Shown here piece after piece: positions 42,804 through 49,704 of a stretch of 64,000 bases of DNA. Made by a program: the position numbers and the translations under genes. Within the stretch, counting starts at the first letter, position 1; every line of letters begins with the position of its first letter. Under the pieces are notes generated by a model, which searched no databases, was not told where the DNA came from, and saw nothing but the letters and a program-made list of their open reading frames with translations. The stretch comes from Dehalococcoidia bacterium (GTDB taxonomy: Bacteria; Chloroflexota; Dehalococcoidia; GIF9; JBFMDU01), in NCBI GenBank assembly GCA_034431935.1, contig DAOUCU010000059.1, forward strand, positions 2,132-66,131, in the 5' to 3' direction.

Positions 42804-45266
42804 TTGATTGTGCCTGTAGAGCCGCTGAAAAGCATCCTCCAGCTTGAGCAGAAGCGGCACTATGATAACGGAGCGGTCATTGGAGGGCTTGATGGCTTTG
42901 TGTCGAGATGGGCCGCTCAGGTGAGCCAGCGGAGGGTCGGGCCGCGTTTTCTTGCACGTCTCAAAAAGCTTGAGCTAACCCGGCCCAACTATGCCTCATG
43001 GGATGTCGAAAAGCGGCGCAAATGGGTGGAGCGCCTTCTAGCATGGCTGGCGGTCGCCGAGGACGAGGCACAGCAGTCCGCTACGGTTTCGTCTAAAGCA
43101 CCGCCTTTGTCTCGTCCAACAAAGCCGGTCGTGTGGCGTGCCATACCGGACGCCGGTCTCAATGCGCCTATTGCCAGCGTGAAGGGCGTTGCCTCGGGTG
43201 TTGGTGGTAAGCTGTCGCGTCTCGGAGTCAGAACGGTACGGGACATGCTCTATTTCTTCCCACGGCGTCATATCGATTACAGCAACCGGCGCTTCATTGC
43301 CGATTTGAAGGAGGGTGAAGAGCAGACCGTCGTGGCTACAGTGTGGCAGGCCAGCAGTGAGTTTCTTGGCGGCCGGCGTGGTACGGTGGCGGTGGTAGGT
43401 GATGAGACCGGGAACATGCGGGTGGTGTGGTTCAATCAGCCGTACCTTGCCGAGCGTCTACGGACGAACTCTCGAATTGCCATCAGCGGCCGGATAACGG
43501 TGTATCGTGGGATCAAGCAGTTTGAGTCTCCTGAATGGGAGTTCATCGGTGATGCTGATGAGGACCTGCTTCATACCGGTCGCCTCGTGCCCGTCTACCC
43601 GCTGACCCAGGGGCTTTTCCCCAAGCAGATGCGTCGTTTGGCCAAGACGGTGGTCGATGGGTGGGCCGACCGTGTGGTGGACTTCATGCCGGATGCAATT
43701 CGGGAAAGGTGTCATCTGGCAGGACTGTCCTGGGCGATCCGACAGGCGCATTTCCCCGATTCCCATGAGACTCTGGGTGGGGCCAGGCGTCGGCTGGCCT
43801 TCGACGAGCTGTTTCTTTTCCAGATGGGTGTTCTTGGGCGAAAGAGGGAGTGGCAGGAAAGCCAGCCGGGTAGTCCGCTATCGGTTGACCGTGGACTGGT
43901 TGACCGGCTGGTAGCCAGTCTGCCGTTTAGCCTGACCAAGGCGCAGGCGAAGGCGCTGGATGAGATTCTAACCGACATCCAGAAGCCCAAGGCGATGTCG
44001 AGGCTCCTTCAGGGCGAGGTCGGTAGTGGTAAGACCGTGGTGGCAGTAGTGGTGCTGATTGTGGCGGTAGCTAACGGTTGTCAGGGCGCATTCATGGCGC
44101 CCACCGAGATACTCGCTGAACAACACTTCAACAGCGTTTGCCAGTTTTTGAAGATGCTGGGCGGTAGAGAAGAGGAGAGTGAGGCTAGTATGCGTCGCTA
44201 TCACGGTGTCCTAGATAGGCCGGTGGTCGTGGCGCGCCTGGTGGGTGCGCTTTCGGCTAGAACCAAGAAGGCTTTGCATCAACAGGTTGAAGACGGTGAA
44301 GTGGGAATCACTATCGGTACGCATGCCATCATTCAGAAGGACGTATCTTTCAGAAAGCTGGGACTGGTAGTTGTTGACGAACAGCACCGCTTCGGCGTGG
44401 AACAGCGCTCGGCGCTGCGCCAGAAGGGTTTTAACCCGCATGTGCTGGCGATGACGGCGACACCGATCCCGCGCACCATGGCCCTAACTTTGTACGGTGA
44501 TCTCGACCTATCGGTCATCGATGAACTGCCTCCTGGCAGACAGAGGGTGAGAACGAGGTGGGTATACCCGGAGGAACGTCCTAAGGCATATGATTTCGTC
44601 CGGCGCCAAGTAGCCGAGGGCCGACAGGCGTTCATCATCTGTCCTTTGATTGAGGAGTCTGAAGCGGTGCAGGCCAGAGCCGCAGTCGCTGAATACGAGC
44701 GTTTGTCCGGTGAGGTTTTTCCTCAGCTGCGTCTGGGACTGCTTCATGGGCGCATGTCGGCTGAAGACAAGGAAAGTGTTATGGCTCAATTCCGTGCCGG
44801 CGATCTTGATATTCTTGTTTCCACGGCGGTGGTCGAGGTTGGTATTGATGTCCCCAATGCCACGGTTATGCTGGTCGAGGGCGCTGATAGGTTTGGCCTT
44901 TCTCAGCTTCACCAGTTCCGCGGTCGAGTGGGTCGCGGCCAGTATGCCAGCTATTGTCTCCTGCTAGCGGAAAACCCGTCTGAGGAAGGCAGGGAACGCC
45001 TGAGGCTGATCGAGCGGGTTCATAACGGATTCCTGCTGGCGGAAGAGGACCTCAAGATGCGAGGCCCTGGAGAATTCTTTGGGACGCGCCAGAGCGGACT
45101 AGCCGACTTTCGCATGGCGAAGCTGTCAGACGTGGCCTTGCTGGAGCTGGCAAGAACTGAGGCGATGTCGCTGTGGAAGGATATGCGTCTCATTAAGAGC
45201 CCTGAGTATCAGCCTTTGATGGCGGAACTGGCACGGACCTGGCCCGGCGTGGCCGAGTGGAGCTAG
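42804..45266 (+). CDS. recG: ATP-dependent DNA helicase RecG (about 110-aa N-terminal extension)
   Basis: 820 aa. Wedge-domain region, Walker A GEVGSGKTVVA, DEQHRFGV, and the TRG motif region. TTG start with GAGGA upstream; an alternative GTG lies at 42810. Confidence 0.9.
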   Translation: MIVPVEPLKSILQLEQKRHYDNGAVIGGLDGFVSRWAAQVSQRRVGPRFLARLKKLELTRPNYASWDVEKRRKWVERLLAWLAVAEDEAQQSATVSSKAPPLSRPTKPVVWRAIPDAGLNAPIASVKGVASGVGGKLSRLGVRTVRDMLYFFPRRHIDYSNRRFIADLKEGEEQTVVATVWQASSEFLGGRRGTVAVVGDETGNMRVVWFNQPYLAERLRTNSRIAISGRITVYRGIKQFESPEWEFIGDADEDLLHTGRLVPVYPLTQGLFPKQMRRLAKTVVDGWADRVVDFMPDAIRERCHLAGLSWAIRQAHFPDSHETLGGARRRLAFDELFLFQMGVLGRKREWQESQPGSPLSVDRGLVDRLVASLPFSLTKAQAKALDEILTDIQKPKAMSRLLQGEVGSGKTVVAVVVLIVAVANGCQGAFMAPTEILAEQHFNSVCQFLKMLGGREEESEASMRRYHGVLDRPVVVARLVGALSARTKKALHQQVEDGEVGITIGTHAIIQKDVSFRKLGLVVVDEQHRFGVEQRSALRQKGFNPHVLAMTATPIPRTMALTLYGDLDLSVIDELPPGRQRVRTRWVYPEERPKAYDFVRRQVAEGRQAFIICPLIEESEAVQARAAVAEYERLSGEVFPQLRLGLLHGRMSAEDKESVMAQFRAGDLDILVSTAVVEVGIDVPNATVMLVEGADRFGLSQLHQFRGRVGRGQYASYCLLLAENPSEEGRERLRLIERVHNGFLLAEEDLKMRGPGEFFGTRQSGLADFRMAKLSDVALLELARTEAMSLWKDMRLIKSPEYQPLMAELARTWPGVAEWS

Positions 45267-45282
45267 AAGACTGGCCGCCGTA

Positions 45283-45311
45283 TTGGACTTATGATGGCTT
45301 TCGTGTACAAT
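45283..45311 (+). promoter_or_regulatory. Putative sigma70 promoter upstream of the small ORF and argS
   Basis: -35 TTGGAC (45283-45288), a 17-bp spacer, and -10 TACAAT (45306-45311). Confidence 0.4.
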
Positions 45312-45359
45312 AGGCGTTCAAAGCACGTGCCGGAGCGCCAAGAAAGGAGGGCCTATATC

Positions 45360-45443
45360 ATGCCCCGCTGTGGTTGTGGAGCCTCCAAGAAGACAGCTGC
45401 GTCGAAAGGTGAGGCCAAAAAGACAGCTTCCAAGAAGTCCCTC
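45360..45443 (+). CDS. Hypothetical small protein (27 aa, MPRCGCGASKKTAASKGEAKKTASKKSLK)
   Basis: Strong SD AAAGGAGG 9 nt upstream of the ATG. A promoter-like element lies upstream and a perfect 13-bp hairpin immediately downstream. Lys-rich with an N-terminal CxC. No family recognised. Confidence 0.35.
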
Positions 45444-45460
45444 AAATAGTATCCGGTAGA

Positions 45461-45491
45461 GTGAGTGCCGCTGCGTCACAGCGGCACTCAC
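45461..45491 (+). other. Perfect 13-bp stem-loop between the small ORF and argS (terminator- or attenuator-like, no T-tract)
   Basis: GTGAGTGCCGCTG-cgtca-CAGCGGCACTCAC. Confidence 0.5.
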
Positions 45492-45502
45492 TTAATCCTT
45501 GT

Positions 45503-47161
45503 ATGTTGAGACGAAGAATAGCTGAATCCCTTGAGGTGGCGGTCCGCACGGCGCAGGAGCGCGGAGCTATCGTTCCCACGACGCTCCCGGAGTTGCTGGT
45601 AGAACGTCCTCAGGATCCCAAACACGGCGACTATGCCTCAAGCTTGGCTTTGAAGCTGGCAAGGGCGACACGTGCCAACCCGATGATAATTGCCGAGAAG
45701 CTTGCTGAATTGCTGCCCCCTATCGCTGGCGTGGAGCGCGTGACTATTGCGGCTCCAGGGTTCATCAATTTCACGATTTCCGGCAAGTGGCTGACGGAGC
45801 AGGTGAATGTAGTCCTCAAGCAGGGGGATGCTTATGGCAATGTGCCTCTCGGCGGCGGTAAGCGTGTGCAGGTCGAGTTCGTAAGTGTGAACCCGACAGG
45901 TCCACTGCATGTCGGCCACGGACGCGGCGCGGTATTGGGGAGTACCCTGGCTAACGTACTAACCGCGGCCGGTTATGATGTTGAGAGAGAGTACTACGTC
46001 AACGACGCGGGTACCCAGATAGACAACTTCCGGATTTCACTGTACGTGCGTTATCAGCAATGTTTCGACCGTGATGTGCCGATGCCTAACGAAGGGTATT
46101 TCGGCAAATACATGGTCGAACTGGCAAGGGATATTGCCTCATCCGAAGGTGACCGATTCTTGAGGATGCCGGAGGACAGAGCCATCTGCGAACTTGGGGC
46201 GATTGGTCTGAGCAGGATGGTCGATGCTATCAGGGATGAGCTGGATCGACTGCGCGTCAAGTTCGATACTTGGTTCAGCGAGCATGACCTGTATCAGGGT
46301 GGTCAATGGGATCGGGCTATGGACATTTTGAGGAACGGGGGATATGTGACCCAGAAGGAGAATGCCATCTGGTTCGTTTCCACGGCGCTTGGCGAAGACA
46401 GGGACAACGTTCTGGTTCGTAGTAATGGTTCGCCGACTTATTTTGCTTCGGACGTTGCCTATCATTACAACAAGTTCCTGGAGAGGAAATTCGACCAGGT
46501 CATTAATATCTGGGGAGCGGATCATCAGGGGCATGTATCGCGGATGAAGGCAGTGATCGGCGCCCTTGGAGTTTCCCCGGAGCGTCTAAAGGTGATTATC
46601 ACCCAGCTTGTGACGCTGCGGCGCGGCCAGGAAGTAGTAAGGCTATCCAAGCGCAGCGGGGACATCATTACTCTGGCTGAGGTCATGGATGAGGTCGGAG
46701 TTGACGCTTGCCGGTTTGTCTTCCTTTCCCGTTCCGCCGACAGCCAGATGGACTTTGACCTGGAACTGGCCAAGAAGCAGTCAGTTGAGAACCCGGTCTA
46801 CTATGTCCAGTATGCCTATGCCCGTATCGCCAGCATCCTCCGGCTGGCCCAAGAGCAGGGTATTAACTTCGCTGACGGCGACGTTTCTCTGCTGACGAAC
46901 GATGCCGAACTAGCGCTCCTTCGTGAGATAGTAAGATTGCCGGAATTGATAGAAATGATGGCCGCCAGGCTCGAACCGCACCATCTTCCGCATTATGCCC
47001 AGGACCTCGCTACCATTTTTCACAGCTTTTATCAACAGTGCCGCGTGATCTCCCCTGATCAGGCGGTGACCAAAGCACGGCTCAAGCTGGTTATGGCGGC
47101 GCGTATAGTCCTTGCCCGAGTATTGGATCTGATGGGGATGACTGCGCCAGAGCGCATGTAG
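45503..47161 (+). CDS. argS: Arginine--tRNA ligase
   Basis: Class I aaRS with HVGH (PTGPLHVGHGRG) and the KMSK-like SKRSG region, plus the DALR anticodon-binding C-terminus. The ATG at 45503 was chosen because it lies after the hairpin; the ORF-track GTG at 45461 sits inside the stem. Confidence 0.9.
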   Translation: MLRRRIAESLEVAVRTAQERGAIVPTTLPELLVERPQDPKHGDYASSLALKLARATRANPMIIAEKLAELLPPIAGVERVTIAAPGFINFTISGKWLTEQVNVVLKQGDAYGNVPLGGGKRVQVEFVSVNPTGPLHVGHGRGAVLGSTLANVLTAAGYDVEREYYVNDAGTQIDNFRISLYVRYQQCFDRDVPMPNEGYFGKYMVELARDIASSEGDRFLRMPEDRAICELGAIGLSRMVDAIRDELDRLRVKFDTWFSEHDLYQGGQWDRAMDILRNGGYVTQKENAIWFVSTALGEDRDNVLVRSNGSPTYFASDVAYHYNKFLERKFDQVINIWGADHQGHVSRMKAVIGALGVSPERLKVIITQLVTLRRGQEVVRLSKRSGDIITLAEVMDEVGVDACRFVFLSRSADSQMDFDLELAKKQSVENPVYYVQYAYARIASILRLAQEQGINFADGDVSLLTNDAELALLREIVRLPELIEMMAARLEPHHLPHYAQDLATIFHSFYQQCRVISPDQAVTKARLKLVMAARIVLARVLDLMGMTAPERM

Positions 47162-47272: not shown

Positions 47273-47305
47273 AATGACCGGCCGTATCAGCGCCGGACGG
47301 TCATT
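47273..47305 (+). other. Inverted repeat immediately upstream of the MFS-like ORF
   Basis: AATGACCG-(17 nt)-CGGTCATT, 8-bp arms. Confidence 0.25.
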
Positions 47306-49704
47306 TGGATATAGGTGATCAATTGGAAGGCGACCACGGGCGTTCCGGTTTATCCGGAATGCTTTCTCGTGAGCAGGTCAGGTCGAGCATAAGGTACTCC
47401 ACCGGTGAAGGGGTGGCGTCGGCGGCGAGTGAAGGAGCGACAGAGGAGTACTATGTTCCCTATGCACTGGCGGCCGGCGCATCAGCTTCAATTGTCGGTT
47501 GGCTGGTTGCTCTGGCGCAGCTGGCGCTGGCACTATGCTATTTAAAGGTCCCCGACTACGTCAGAAAGATAGGCAGCCGCAGGCGTTCTATTCTCGTCCT
47601 AGTTTTCGTTGATGTTGTCACCTTTCTACCCTTCGTGATTCTTCCGTTCCTGGTCAGAGACTATTTGGTCCAGACTATTTTCCTGTTTTACATTCTTTCG
47701 GTTGTTCCCACCATCGTCGTCGGCCCTATCTGGGCAAGCTGGATAACGGACCTGGTACCAGTGGGGGTTCGAGGCAGGTATCTGGGCCAGCGACTGACGT
47801 TTATGGGAGCCAGCGAACTGGCTTGCTTCATTGCCGCCGGAGTAATATTGAACTGGTTCAGCGGTCAGGTATTTGTTGGTTTCTCCATTATCTTCACTTT
47901 CGCCGCGCTAGCGAGACTGGCCTCATGGTTCATGTACTGGAAGATGAATGAGGTTCCGATAATACGGCGGGAAGAGGTCAGTCATTTCGGCTTCCACGAT
48001 GTGATGCCGGCGTTAAAGAATGGCAATGTCGGCCAGTTTATGGTATTTGCCGCGTCTTTGTATTTCACAATTTTCCTGGCGTCGCCTTTCTTCGCCGTGT
48101 TCATGCTTACGGAACTCAAATTCTCTTATCTGGCGTTTATGATTGTTATCTGCAGTGAGCAGGCGGCGCGGCTGGTCATTCTCAGGTTCTGGGGAAAGTA
48201 CGCCGACGCTAGGGGCAGTCTGAAGGTCGTAAAACTGGTATCTGTGGTTATCCCGGTAGTTCCGGCTTTGTGGCTGGTGTCTCAAAACATCATCTACCTT
48301 GTTTTCGTTCAGATAATTACAGGTCTGGCTCTGGCCGGGTTTGAGCTTTGCGCGGCCAATTTCATGTATGGGGCGGCGCCAACAGGCGGCCGCATTAAGT
48401 ATATAGCGTTGTTCCGTTCTCTTAACGGTATAGGGGCTGCGGCTGGTGCTTTGCTTGGCGGATATCTGGCAATAGTATTGGTCCCCATCTTCGGGCATAA
48501 GCTGCTGGCGCTTTTCCTGTTGTCCGGGATACTGCGCGGCGTCGTTGTTCTGAAGTTCCTGCCGCCGATAATCGATGTCTCTTTGAAAAGCGCTAAGAAA
48601 CCGGCGTGGGGTACCTTTCGGCCCAAAGGCATGCTGGCGGATGACGCTATCAGCGATGGTTTTGGCTGGGGACTGTTATACATACCCGAAAGCATGCGTC
48701 GCGATTTGAGTCGTGTTTTCGACATGGACCGGGGGCTTCTCCATGAGAAGTCCCACCCGGGCAGGGAAGGACTGTTTCAAAGGTGGGCGCGTCTCGCGGA
48801 GCGGCATCACGTTGTGGATGGGCCGCCGCCATCGCCGGGATCTGGTCAGCGCGAGGAATTGAGGCGCGCTGGTCTAATACATCTGGCGGCTGGCCAGGCC
48901 GCGGAAAGGCGTGTTAATGGGGAAAAGAAGACGTCTGCAGGTGAAAAAAGCCTGCACTATGGTGAGAGGTTATGGCACCGTCTCCGGCGGCGGTTCGGAA
49001 TCGAGACCGCGGCGTCTTCCGCGCAGGCTCGGGCCGGGGTTGCCTTACTTCATAATGTCGAGATCAGGCAGAAGGTGTCCGAGGCAGCGCTCAGTCAAGG
49101 TAATGCTGAGGTCTCAGGTCGAGAATGGCGCAGCGACCTGCGTCAGAAATGGTTGCGGGATGCCCTTAAACAGTGTGCGCAGACCGGGGGAAAAGCTCCA
49201 GTGGAGACAGGCAAGGCTCGGACTTTCGAGGGGCTACTTCATAACTCACGGGCATGGCAGGCGCACCTTGGTAAAGCTTCCAAGAATGGTGCAGGCTCGA
49301 GTGGCCAGCTTCAGCCAGAAGCCAGGATAGAAGGCCTGCTGCACAGAGATGGTGCACGGGAGGCGTTTAGGAGCCGGTCAGACGGTAACAGTGTGGGTGA
49401 CCATGGTGGCAAAACAAGTTCGTCCCATCGTGAAGGACTGCTTTATGATGAACGTGCGTGGGGTAGGTATCTTGGAGACTCGGGCAAGAGTTGGGACGCG
49501 CATGGTGAGATTGGAAATGTTACCCAGCCCGGTCAGCTTGGTACGGATAGGCGGAACGAAGTCCTGACTCGCGTAGATACGTGGAGTATGGAAAAACGTC
49601 AGGTATGGCGCATCGACAGGAGAGTCTCGGGTAGGGCAATGGTAGCGAGGTTAAGGAGTGGGCTAAACGAATTCGGTCGGAAGCGGTCCCGTTATTCTTT
49701 TTAA
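47305..49704 (+). CDS. MFS-like multi-pass membrane transporter (11-12 TM) with a ~350-aa hydrophilic C-terminal tail carrying repeated GLL(H/Y) motifs
   Basis: 799-aa continuous ORF. The ORF-track start is TTG; an in-frame ATG lies at 47359. TM segments occupy the first ~440 aa. The tail contains seven G-L-(L/I)-(H/Y) motifs: GLLY, RGLLHEK, GLIHL, ALLHN, EGLLHNSRAW, EGLLHRDGA and EGLLYDERAW. Confidence 0.6.
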   Translation: MDIGDQLEGDHGRSGLSGMLSREQVRSSIRYSTGEGVASAASEGATEEYYVPYALAAGASASIVGWLVALAQLALALCYLKVPDYVRKIGSRRRSILVLVFVDVVTFLPFVILPFLVRDYLVQTIFLFYILSVVPTIVVGPIWASWITDLVPVGVRGRYLGQRLTFMGASELACFIAAGVILNWFSGQVFVGFSIIFTFAALARLASWFMYWKMNEVPIIRREEVSHFGFHDVMPALKNGNVGQFMVFAASLYFTIFLASPFFAVFMLTELKFSYLAFMIVICSEQAARLVILRFWGKYADARGSLKVVKLVSVVIPVVPALWLVSQNIIYLVFVQIITGLALAGFELCAANFMYGAAPTGGRIKYIALFRSLNGIGAAAGALLGGYLAIVLVPIFGHKLLALFLLSGILRGVVVLKFLPPIIDVSLKSAKKPAWGTFRPKGMLADDAISDGFGWGLLYIPESMRRDLSRVFDMDRGLLHEKSHPGREGLFQRWARLAERHHVVDGPPPSPGSGQREELRRAGLIHLAAGQAAERRVNGEKKTSAGEKSLHYGERLWHRLRRRFGIETAASSAQARAGVALLHNVEIRQKVSEAALSQGNAEVSGREWRSDLRQKWLRDALKQCAQTGGKAPVETGKARTFEGLLHNSRAWQAHLGKASKNGAGSSGQLQPEARIEGLLHRDGAREAFRSRSDGNSVGDHGGKTSSSHREGLLYDERAWGRYLGDSGKSWDAHGEIGNVTQPGQLGTDRRNEVLTRVDTWSMEKRQVWRIDRRVSGRAMVARLRSGLNEFGRKRSRYSF

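Follow-up and report, generated by a model that had tools for sequence, protein, structure and literature searches.

The 64,000-nucleotide (nt) window analyzed here (positions 2,132 to 66,131 of contig DAOUCU010000059.1, assembly GCA_034431935.1) comes from a member of the Dehalococcoidia (Chloroflexota), as placed by the relatives of its arginine--tRNA ligase, ArgS. It carries, in the order recG, small open reading frame (ORF), argS, a short lysine-rich ORF that is the subject of this study. The ORF occupies positions 45360 to 45449 of the plus strand (ATG at 45360, TAG at 45447-45449), and its 29 codons encode MPRCGCGASKKTAASKGEAKKTASKKSLK, a peptide with a net charge of about +8. A Shine-Dalgarno (SD) sequence read directly at 45343-45351 on the same strand, AAAGGAGGG, lies 9 nt before the ATG, and farther 5′ a promoter-like site, TTGGAC-17-TACAAT, was located at 45283-45311 (plus strand; −35 element at 45283-45288 and −10 element at 45306-45311). 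A consensus scan read this promoter as TGGACT-16-TACAAT, with 9 of 12 positions matching, and found no other sigma-70-like site within the 1.1 kb from 44800 to 45900. The ORF is followed on the plus strand by a terminator-like hairpin at 45459-45493, which comprises 15 pairs (14 perfect Watson-Crick pairs and one G-U pair) closed by a CGUCA loop and is succeeded by UUAAUCCUU; the perfect arms span 45460-45473 and 45479-45492, and the calculated energy is −30.7 kcal/mol (z = −7.7 versus shuffled sequences). The argS gene, encoding 552 amino acids (aa) beginning MLRRRIAESLE, lies at 45503-47161 on the plus strand, and its homologues, at 100 to 63% identity, carry the Arg_tRNA_synt_N, tRNA-synt_1d, and DALR_1 domains. 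The spacer between hairpin and argS extends over 45494-45502 (plus strand) when counted from the 15-pair stem and over 11 nt (45492-45502) when counted from a 13-bp stem; no SD was present in the 11 nt 5′ of the argS ATG, TTAATCCTTGT.

A first-pass annotation made from the sequence letters had already described the promoter, the SD, the small ORF, the hairpin, and the SD-less argS start, and all of these were found as claimed, with some numbers corrected. The peptide, given there as 27 aa, has 29 (as does the sequence written in that annotation itself), and the stem begins 11 nt past the stop codon rather than 17. The placement of argS directly 3′ of the hairpin, with no SD of its own, was borne out, with the ATG at 45503 and a distance of 11 nt. 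Within the 64-kb window, the small ORF was the sole ATG ORF of 15 to 60 aa with an SD and at least 28% Lys plus Arg, and only one other perfect hairpin reached 14 bp, the arm of the present one not being a dispersed repeat. The promoter, the hairpin, and the ORF also recur in relatives, and these features are unlikely to have arisen by chance.

Relatives were sought in a screen of 80 species-level loci around argS together with contigs fetched via ArgS homologues. Eight distinct versions of the ORF were found, distributed over two ArgS clades and each lying directly 5′ of argS. These homologues were recovered either beside argS or by a single DNA-pattern scan, for which at least one true match was listed. 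The scan looked in metagenome contigs for an SD followed by MPRC[GV]; random GC-rich matches predominated, and the one true hit among the matches listed was L155, which belongs to the same species as L020. The clade A peptides begin MPRCGCGAS and are 28 to 29 aa long; they are those of the window (ArgS identity, 100%), L081 (MPRCGCGASKKTAAPKEEAKKTASKKSPK; ArgS identity to the window, 94%), L001 (MPRCGCGASKKTAAPKKEAKKTASKKSSK; 88%), L082 (MPRCGCGASKKAAAPKKEAKKTAPKKSSR; 87%), and L083-85 (MPRCGCGASSKPAAPKKEAKSATKKSSK; 79%). The clade B peptides begin MPRCVRTK and are 24 to 30 aa long; they are those of L003 (MPRCVRTKEAGAKKASKKATTKKPAPKKKT; 68%), L020 and the equivalent L155 (MPRCVRTKKTAAKEVSKKATTKKK; 66%), and L088 (MPRCVRTKKAATKETGKKVATKKAAPKKKS; 68%, as P0111). 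Across the eight members, M1, P2, R3, C4, and five Lys columns do not vary, and a GGAG-type SD precedes the ATG by 4 to 9 nt in all eight. Metal binding through the CxC motif had been one early suggestion for this peptide, and it did not hold up as a family trait; the motif is confined to clade A, the second Cys being missing in clade B, and Cys4 alone is invariant in all members. Nor did the peptides have the marks of a precursor of a ribosomally synthesized and post-translationally modified peptide, since Cys4 is the only invariant Cys and no maturation genes occurred among the neighbors, which are recG, argS, an MFS transporter, and a class-Ib tRNA synthetase.

The pattern of substitution was that of a translated sequence. 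In the clade A alignment, the variable columns were distributed 7/4/23 over codon positions 1/2/3 (chi-square p = 1e-4), and the ratio of nonsynonymous to synonymous differences (pN/pS; Nei-Gojobori, clade A) was 0.09 to 0.26 for the small ORF versus 0.11 to 0.20 for argS in the same genomes, the two ranges being indistinguishable. The excess of synonymous changes in the small ORF reached Fisher p values down to 1e-7. The first eight codons of the clade B members vary at synonymous third positions only, and the invariant MPRC is spelled by differing codons (CCC/CCT/CCA/CCG for Pro, CGC/CGA/AGG for Arg, and TGT/TGC for Cys). The frame of the small ORF is open in all members, and the other frames carry stops. 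Because of the codon-position bias and the pN/pS values close to those of argS, we conclude from these comparisons that the small ORF is a real coding gene under purifying selection. The earlier suggestion that the ORF encodes a small basic protein missed by annotation is thereby supported by eight ORF versions, variation dominated by third positions, and pN/pS of roughly 0.1 to 0.25. These same data, with pN/pS well below 1 and Fisher probabilities so low, argue against the ORF being a chance by-product of an A-rich argS leader in which only the promoter and the hairpin matter, as do the invariance of MPRC in spite of its differing codons and the open frame and strong SD of every member; the very short, low-complexity sequence, the lack of such a gene in any protein database searched, and its dispensability in some relatives would all suit such a by-product, which we nevertheless regard as highly improbable.

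Near argS, the gene is sparsely distributed. In 76 of the 80 species-level loci, no such ORF was present within 4 kb of argS. In L089, whose ArgS is 86% identical to that of L020, the small ORF is cleanly absent (positions 1975-2022), and in L033 (positions 400-500) only a 3′ remnant is left, resembling the ...APKKK-stop end of the ORF. The two ORF-bearing clades were not sisters in a rough ArgS neighbor-joining tree. V24 of ArgS is common to both clades and to the ORF-less relatives of clade B and occurs in almost no other lineage, and for this reason a single origin of the small ORF followed by losses is plausible. Adaptations of the synthetase in the ORF-bearing lineages were considered and rejected; only three conservative columns were found, and V24 is also present in the ORF-less relatives of clade B, a sharing that hints at common ancestry rather than co-adaptation.

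The hairpin was found at the same place in the five clade A sequences, with 11 to 13 nt from stop to stem and 11 to 12 nt from stem to ATG, and the length of the latter spacer is constant although its sequence varies. It is made up of 13 consistent pairs, two of which are doubly compensated (U-A to G-C and A-U to G-C). A tract of U4-5 follows the stem in three of the five members (UUUU in L001 and L082 and CCUUUUU in L083), and the corresponding sequences are UUAAUCC in the window and UCAAUCC in L081. In a terminator scan that required at least 5 T in 8, L082 passed and the window failed on the T-tract criterion; only the inner 5 pairs of L001 were recognized, its full stem having a mismatch, and the loop of L083 exceeds the length limit of the tool. 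By its form, the hairpin looks like a leaky intrinsic terminator. The junctions of clade B are different: in L020, argS starts 1 nt after the stop of the small ORF (TAA-a-GTG) and there is no hairpin; 35 nt separate the two genes in L003, where the spacer contains a separate GGAG and a weak A/U hairpin; and the spacer of L088, also 35 nt long, is unstructured. Because clade B has no comparable structure, this comparison identifies the small ORF as the conserved element and the hairpin as a clade A addition. The first-pass annotation had suggested conservation of the ORF plus hairpin upstream of argS as a check; both are conserved in clade A, the ORF alone being kept in both clades. It had also named conservation of the hairpin alone as the outcome that would speak against a gene, and the opposite was observed, since in clade B it is the ORF that persists and the hairpin that is missing.

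The arrangement recalls the leader-peptide transcription attenuators known for amino-acid operons and pheST, in that a short leader ORF is followed by a terminator-like hairpin just 5′ of an aminoacyl-tRNA synthetase gene. A leader ORF and structure controlling argS had been offered earlier as the alternative to a small protein, and the architecture bears this out; the remaining evidence, namely, the absence of a conserved antiterminator, the few Arg codons, and the lack of a hairpin in clade B, does not. In its full form, this explanation holds that translation of the small ORF, acting in cis with the hairpin, tunes argS by sensing Arg-tRNA(Arg) or translation capacity and that the peptide has no function in trans. 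It would account for the position of the ORF within the leader of an argS gene that has neither its own SD nor an evident promoter, for the constant hairpin spacing in clade A, for the invariant Arg codon at position 3, and for the adjacency of all known members to argS. However, RNAalifold analysis of the whole leader in the five clade A sequences found covariation for the terminal hairpin only, other pairs being kept inconsistently, and revealed no conserved antiterminator or alternative pairing. Unlike the known attenuators, the leader has no run of cognate Arg codons: Lys is enriched even though the regulated gene is argS, and only 1 or 2 of the 24 to 30 codons specify Arg (one in clade A, at position 3, with an additional C-terminal Arg in L082, and two in clade B). 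A ribosome stalled at codon 3 would be about 85 nt from the hairpin, and clade B keeps the ORF where the hairpin is missing. Purifying selection acts along the whole peptide sequence itself, for which a simple codon-sensing leader has no need, and lengths varying from 24 to 30 aa fit poorly with a precise site of nascent-chain arrest. A purely cis-acting leader peptide is therefore unlikely in our judgment. A variant in which a rare Arg codon acts as the sensor was rejected: the CGC of the window is its commonest Arg codon (27%), and the AGG/AGA of clade B are minor but not rare.

A further, small hairpin lies inside the coding sequence. The codons for E-A-K-K-T-A-S (window 45408-45430; L001 3910-3931; L082 607-626) form a GGAGGC...GCCTCC hairpin, which on the minus strand scores as terminator-like and is then followed by T6 derived from Lys codons. 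This hairpin is probably incidental to the coding sequence, as no convergent gene requires it.

The promoter of the small gene was aligned in all five clade A sequences, even where the upstream gene differs, and is kept as TGGACT-16-TAGAAT in L001 and L082. The conserved block of promoter, ORF, hairpin, and argS begins a few bases 5′ of the −35 element. Upstream of this block lies recG in the window, L081, and L083; L082 has no called gene in 698 nt; and in L001 the upstream neighbor is a divergently transcribed 945-aa gene, the sole promoter-like site on the argS strand preceding the small ORF. Because the only upstream neighbor in L001 is transcribed divergently, this gene arrangement implies that the small ORF must lie in the argS leader. 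Because argS is an essential gene that lacks both an SD and a convincing separate promoter, its expression most probably relies on read-through starting at the promoter of the small gene, in which case the hairpin would be a leaky terminator.

Other members of the class may express argS differently. Of 89 Dehalococcoidia loci, 47 (L002-L080, e.g., L005, L010, L012, L015, L022, L023, L029, L035, L055, and L065) had a near-perfect match to TTGTGCTATAAT, an extended −10-like sequence, within 320 nt 5′ of argS. In 10 of these 47 it ends only 8 to 13 nt before the argS start, a spacing that suggests that leaderless or near-leaderless, SD-less argS mRNAs exist in Dehalococcoidia. None of the ORF-bearing loci matched TTGTGCTATAAT within 2 mismatches, and we do not claim homology between it and the promoter of the ORF; the clade A bases at the corresponding place are poorly conserved, and the A that is critical at hexamer position 2 is missing from them. 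In L026 (2440-2515), the argS leader contains a tandem duplication directly after the promoter, with two copies of TTTGGGCATAAAGGTGACTGAAA.

Considering these observations together, we propose, with moderate confidence, that the locus contains a gene for a trans-acting polycationic microprotein that forms an operon with argS across a leaky, terminator-like hairpin. The sigma-70-type promoter and strong SD would drive a 29-aa gene whose product is highly basic and probably disordered, with an MPRC head and a tail in which KK pairs recur about every five residues among Ala, Ser, Thr, and Pro. The hairpin would serve as the intrinsic-terminator-like 3′ structure of this gene, with most transcripts ending there and giving a stable, abundant short mRNA, and a fraction reading through to provide the mRNA for the essential argS. 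The argS start, 11 nt past the stem and in an A/U-rich, SD-less context, would presumably be translated at a much lower level, so that the hairpin would set a high ratio of peptide to arginyl-tRNA synthetase (ArgRS). The peptide itself would most likely function in trans, binding nucleic acid as a polycation, whether ribosome or rRNA, tRNA, or DNA, and its constant position beside argS would indicate a target in the translation apparatus.

Precedents for such an arrangement are provided by the E. coli rpsU-dnaG-rpoD and rpsO-pnp operons, in which the gene for a small, abundant basic protein is separated by a leaky internal terminator from the gene for an essential enzyme of low abundance. As in these operons, a strong promoter and SD here serve a tiny basic-protein gene, a GC-rich hairpin comes right after its stop codon, and the downstream gene, an essential one, has an SD that is weak or missing and lacks an obvious separate promoter. 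Unlike them, the product is no recognized ribosomal protein, termination and read-through are predicted, and the window's own hairpin is without a good U tract.

Several points weigh against the proposed operon and its trans-acting product. With no proper U tract, the hairpin of the window may terminate poorly or serve another role. A −10-like CTTAAT ends 6 nt before the argS ATG and may represent a weak internal promoter giving a leaderless argS mRNA. The read-through, the differential expression, and the molecular target of the peptide are features that we infer from the DNA. The nucleic-acid-binding role, likewise, is read from the composition of the peptide (its charge, KK pairs, and SPKK/H1-like units) and from its place in a translation-related operon. 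The small gene is dispensable, having been lost in close relatives (L089 and, apart from its remnant, L033). Finally, the strict linkage to argS may in part reflect ascertainment.

The composition of the peptide can be compared with the SPKK or histone-H1-like Lys-Ala-Pro tails of larger DNA-binding proteins, such as Chlamydia Hc1, the C terminus of mycobacterial HupB, and Pseudomonas AlgP. It shares with these tails the repeated (S/A/T)(P)KK units, e.g., APKKEAKKTASKK and TKKPAPKKK, and the likely character of a disordered polycation. Unlike in those proteins, the tail together with an invariant MPRC head constitutes the whole protein here, and the sole database echo was a low-complexity one: in phmmer and hmmsearch comparisons with the PDB, the only match was to CP29, with an E value of 0.55. 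The very small ribosomal proteins bTHX, bS22, bL37, and eL41 resemble the family in length (24 to 30 aa here), very high positive charge, and strong expression signals. They differ in that no sequence similarity to them was found, the peptides being rich in Lys, Ala, Ser, Thr, and Pro rather than Arg, and in that the small gene is dispensable in relatives. The early idea of a ribosomal protein of the bTHX type thus gained no support from Pfam, NCBIfam, or the PDB. A suspected resemblance to the N terminus of L35 (rpmI) was also rejected, as hhalign against E. coli L35 gave a probability of 0.2%.

A more specific form of the proposal, which we advance tentatively, is that in some Dehalococcoidia the MPRC microprotein belongs to the translation apparatus as a lineage-specific component, encoded in an operon with argS and either bound to the ribosome or free-standing as a tRNA/ArgRS cofactor. 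If true, the shared operon would allow the peptide and ArgRS to respond to the same promoter, and under the cofactor option bacteria would encode in trans a counterpart of the lysine-rich domains that are appended to eukaryotic synthetases. Eukaryotic AspRS and LysRS have lysine-rich N-terminal extensions that bind tRNA, and here too a Lys-rich segment is tied genetically to an aminoacyl-tRNA synthetase; unlike these extensions, it is encoded by a separate gene rather than as a fusion and is absent from most Dehalococcoidia ArgRS loci.

Taken as an explanation of its own, a dedicated ArgRS partner would be a polycationic peptide that binds ArgRS and/or tRNA(Arg) in trans and helps in tRNA capture. 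In favor of this, ArgRS requires tRNA for amino-acid activation, and the composition of the peptide is Lys-rich. All eight members lie directly 5′ of argS, in two clades and with three types of junction, and in L020 only 1 nt separates the stop of the ORF from the argS start, which suggests that translation of the two is coupled. This regularity is tempered by a search that was biased to argS neighborhoods, and, given the terminator-like hairpin, peptide and enzyme should be expressed very unequally in clade A. In addition, L089, L033, and the 76 of 80 loci without the ORF near argS show no visible change in ArgRS, and the ArgRS columns common to the ORF-bearing lineages are only three and conservative. 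We regard a dedicated partner of ArgRS as quite doubtful, and the broader proposal of a trans-acting nucleic-acid-binding microprotein in a leaky operon with argS is preferred.

Searches of protein and RNA resources gave no known family to which the locus could be assigned. Pfam and NCBIfam contained no family matching the peptide, a 52-aa extended ORF, or any of the eight members at E ≤ 10, and an NCBIfam RPWMISH match was dismissed as noise (19.5 bits versus a cut-off of 120). A word-indexed search of 5.8 billion clusters with the 52-aa ORF and, separately, with three concatenated peptides returned nothing, although its E-value ceiling may hide relatives this short. None of nine sequences looked up exactly in a collection of 15 billion proteins was present, and a full HMMER scan of 1.84 billion representatives gave two tandem-repeat artifacts only, one of which matched a noncoding part of the query. 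A locus search of viral contigs based on the peptide alignment found no relatives, its patterns being too degenerate. Rfam gave no relevant match at E ≤ 10 for window positions 44500-46500, and hence no T-box; at five related loci there was no Rfam match at gathering level, and no tRNA genes or Rfam families were located near the locus in relatives. The literature search on argS leaders, Dehalococcoides small proteins, and lysine-rich microproteins yielded nothing relevant. One assembly only (Logan, L088) had called the small ORF as a gene, without annotation.

The peptides thus form a small-protein family that is new, although its general kind is familiar, and that is absent from Pfam, NCBIfam, and the 15-billion-protein collection. 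They provide a case, validated by comparative genomics, in which a gene no longer than 30 codons was missed in an environmentally important and mostly uncultured class. Should the peptide prove to bind ribosomes, tRNA, or ArgRS, bacterial translation would have a new accessory factor; if the ORF instead acts in cis, it would represent a way of controlling a synthetase gene that is itself new. Because the family has few members and close relatives can do without it, the general impact is moderate.

Gene callers not only overlook the small gene but also misplace the start of argS within the hairpin loop. In the JGI calls P0001 and P0002 (562 aa), the first codon of ArgS is a GTG located in the loop (window 45473-45502; L081 3001-3030). 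The ArgS homologues all begin at the downstream Met (ML[KR][RK]...), the same start as used here, and because of this the 562-aa calls are probably 10 codons too long.

The remainder of the neighborhood was also compared. The upstream recG, encoding an ATP-dependent DNA helicase, corresponds to an 820-aa ORF at 42804-45266 on the plus strand, the start codon of which is uncertain. L081 likewise has an 820-aa product at the recG position, with the Pfam domains RecG_wedge, DEAD, Helicase_C, and RecG_dom3_C. The gene order in L081 (DegV, RecG, gap, ArgS, MFS transporter, and class-Ib synthetase) agrees with that of the window. Downstream of argS, positions 47305-49704 of the window encode a 799-aa protein whose N-terminal half resembles an MFS transporter (a weak PF07690 match in the L081 homologue) and whose C-terminal extension of about 350 aa is charged and of low complexity. 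The other long perfect hairpin of the window, at 1705-1741, consists of AACAGAATGGCGGCGTT, a 3-nt loop, and AACGCCGCCATTCTGTT; it has 17 bp and is followed by TAGGGCG, with no T tract.

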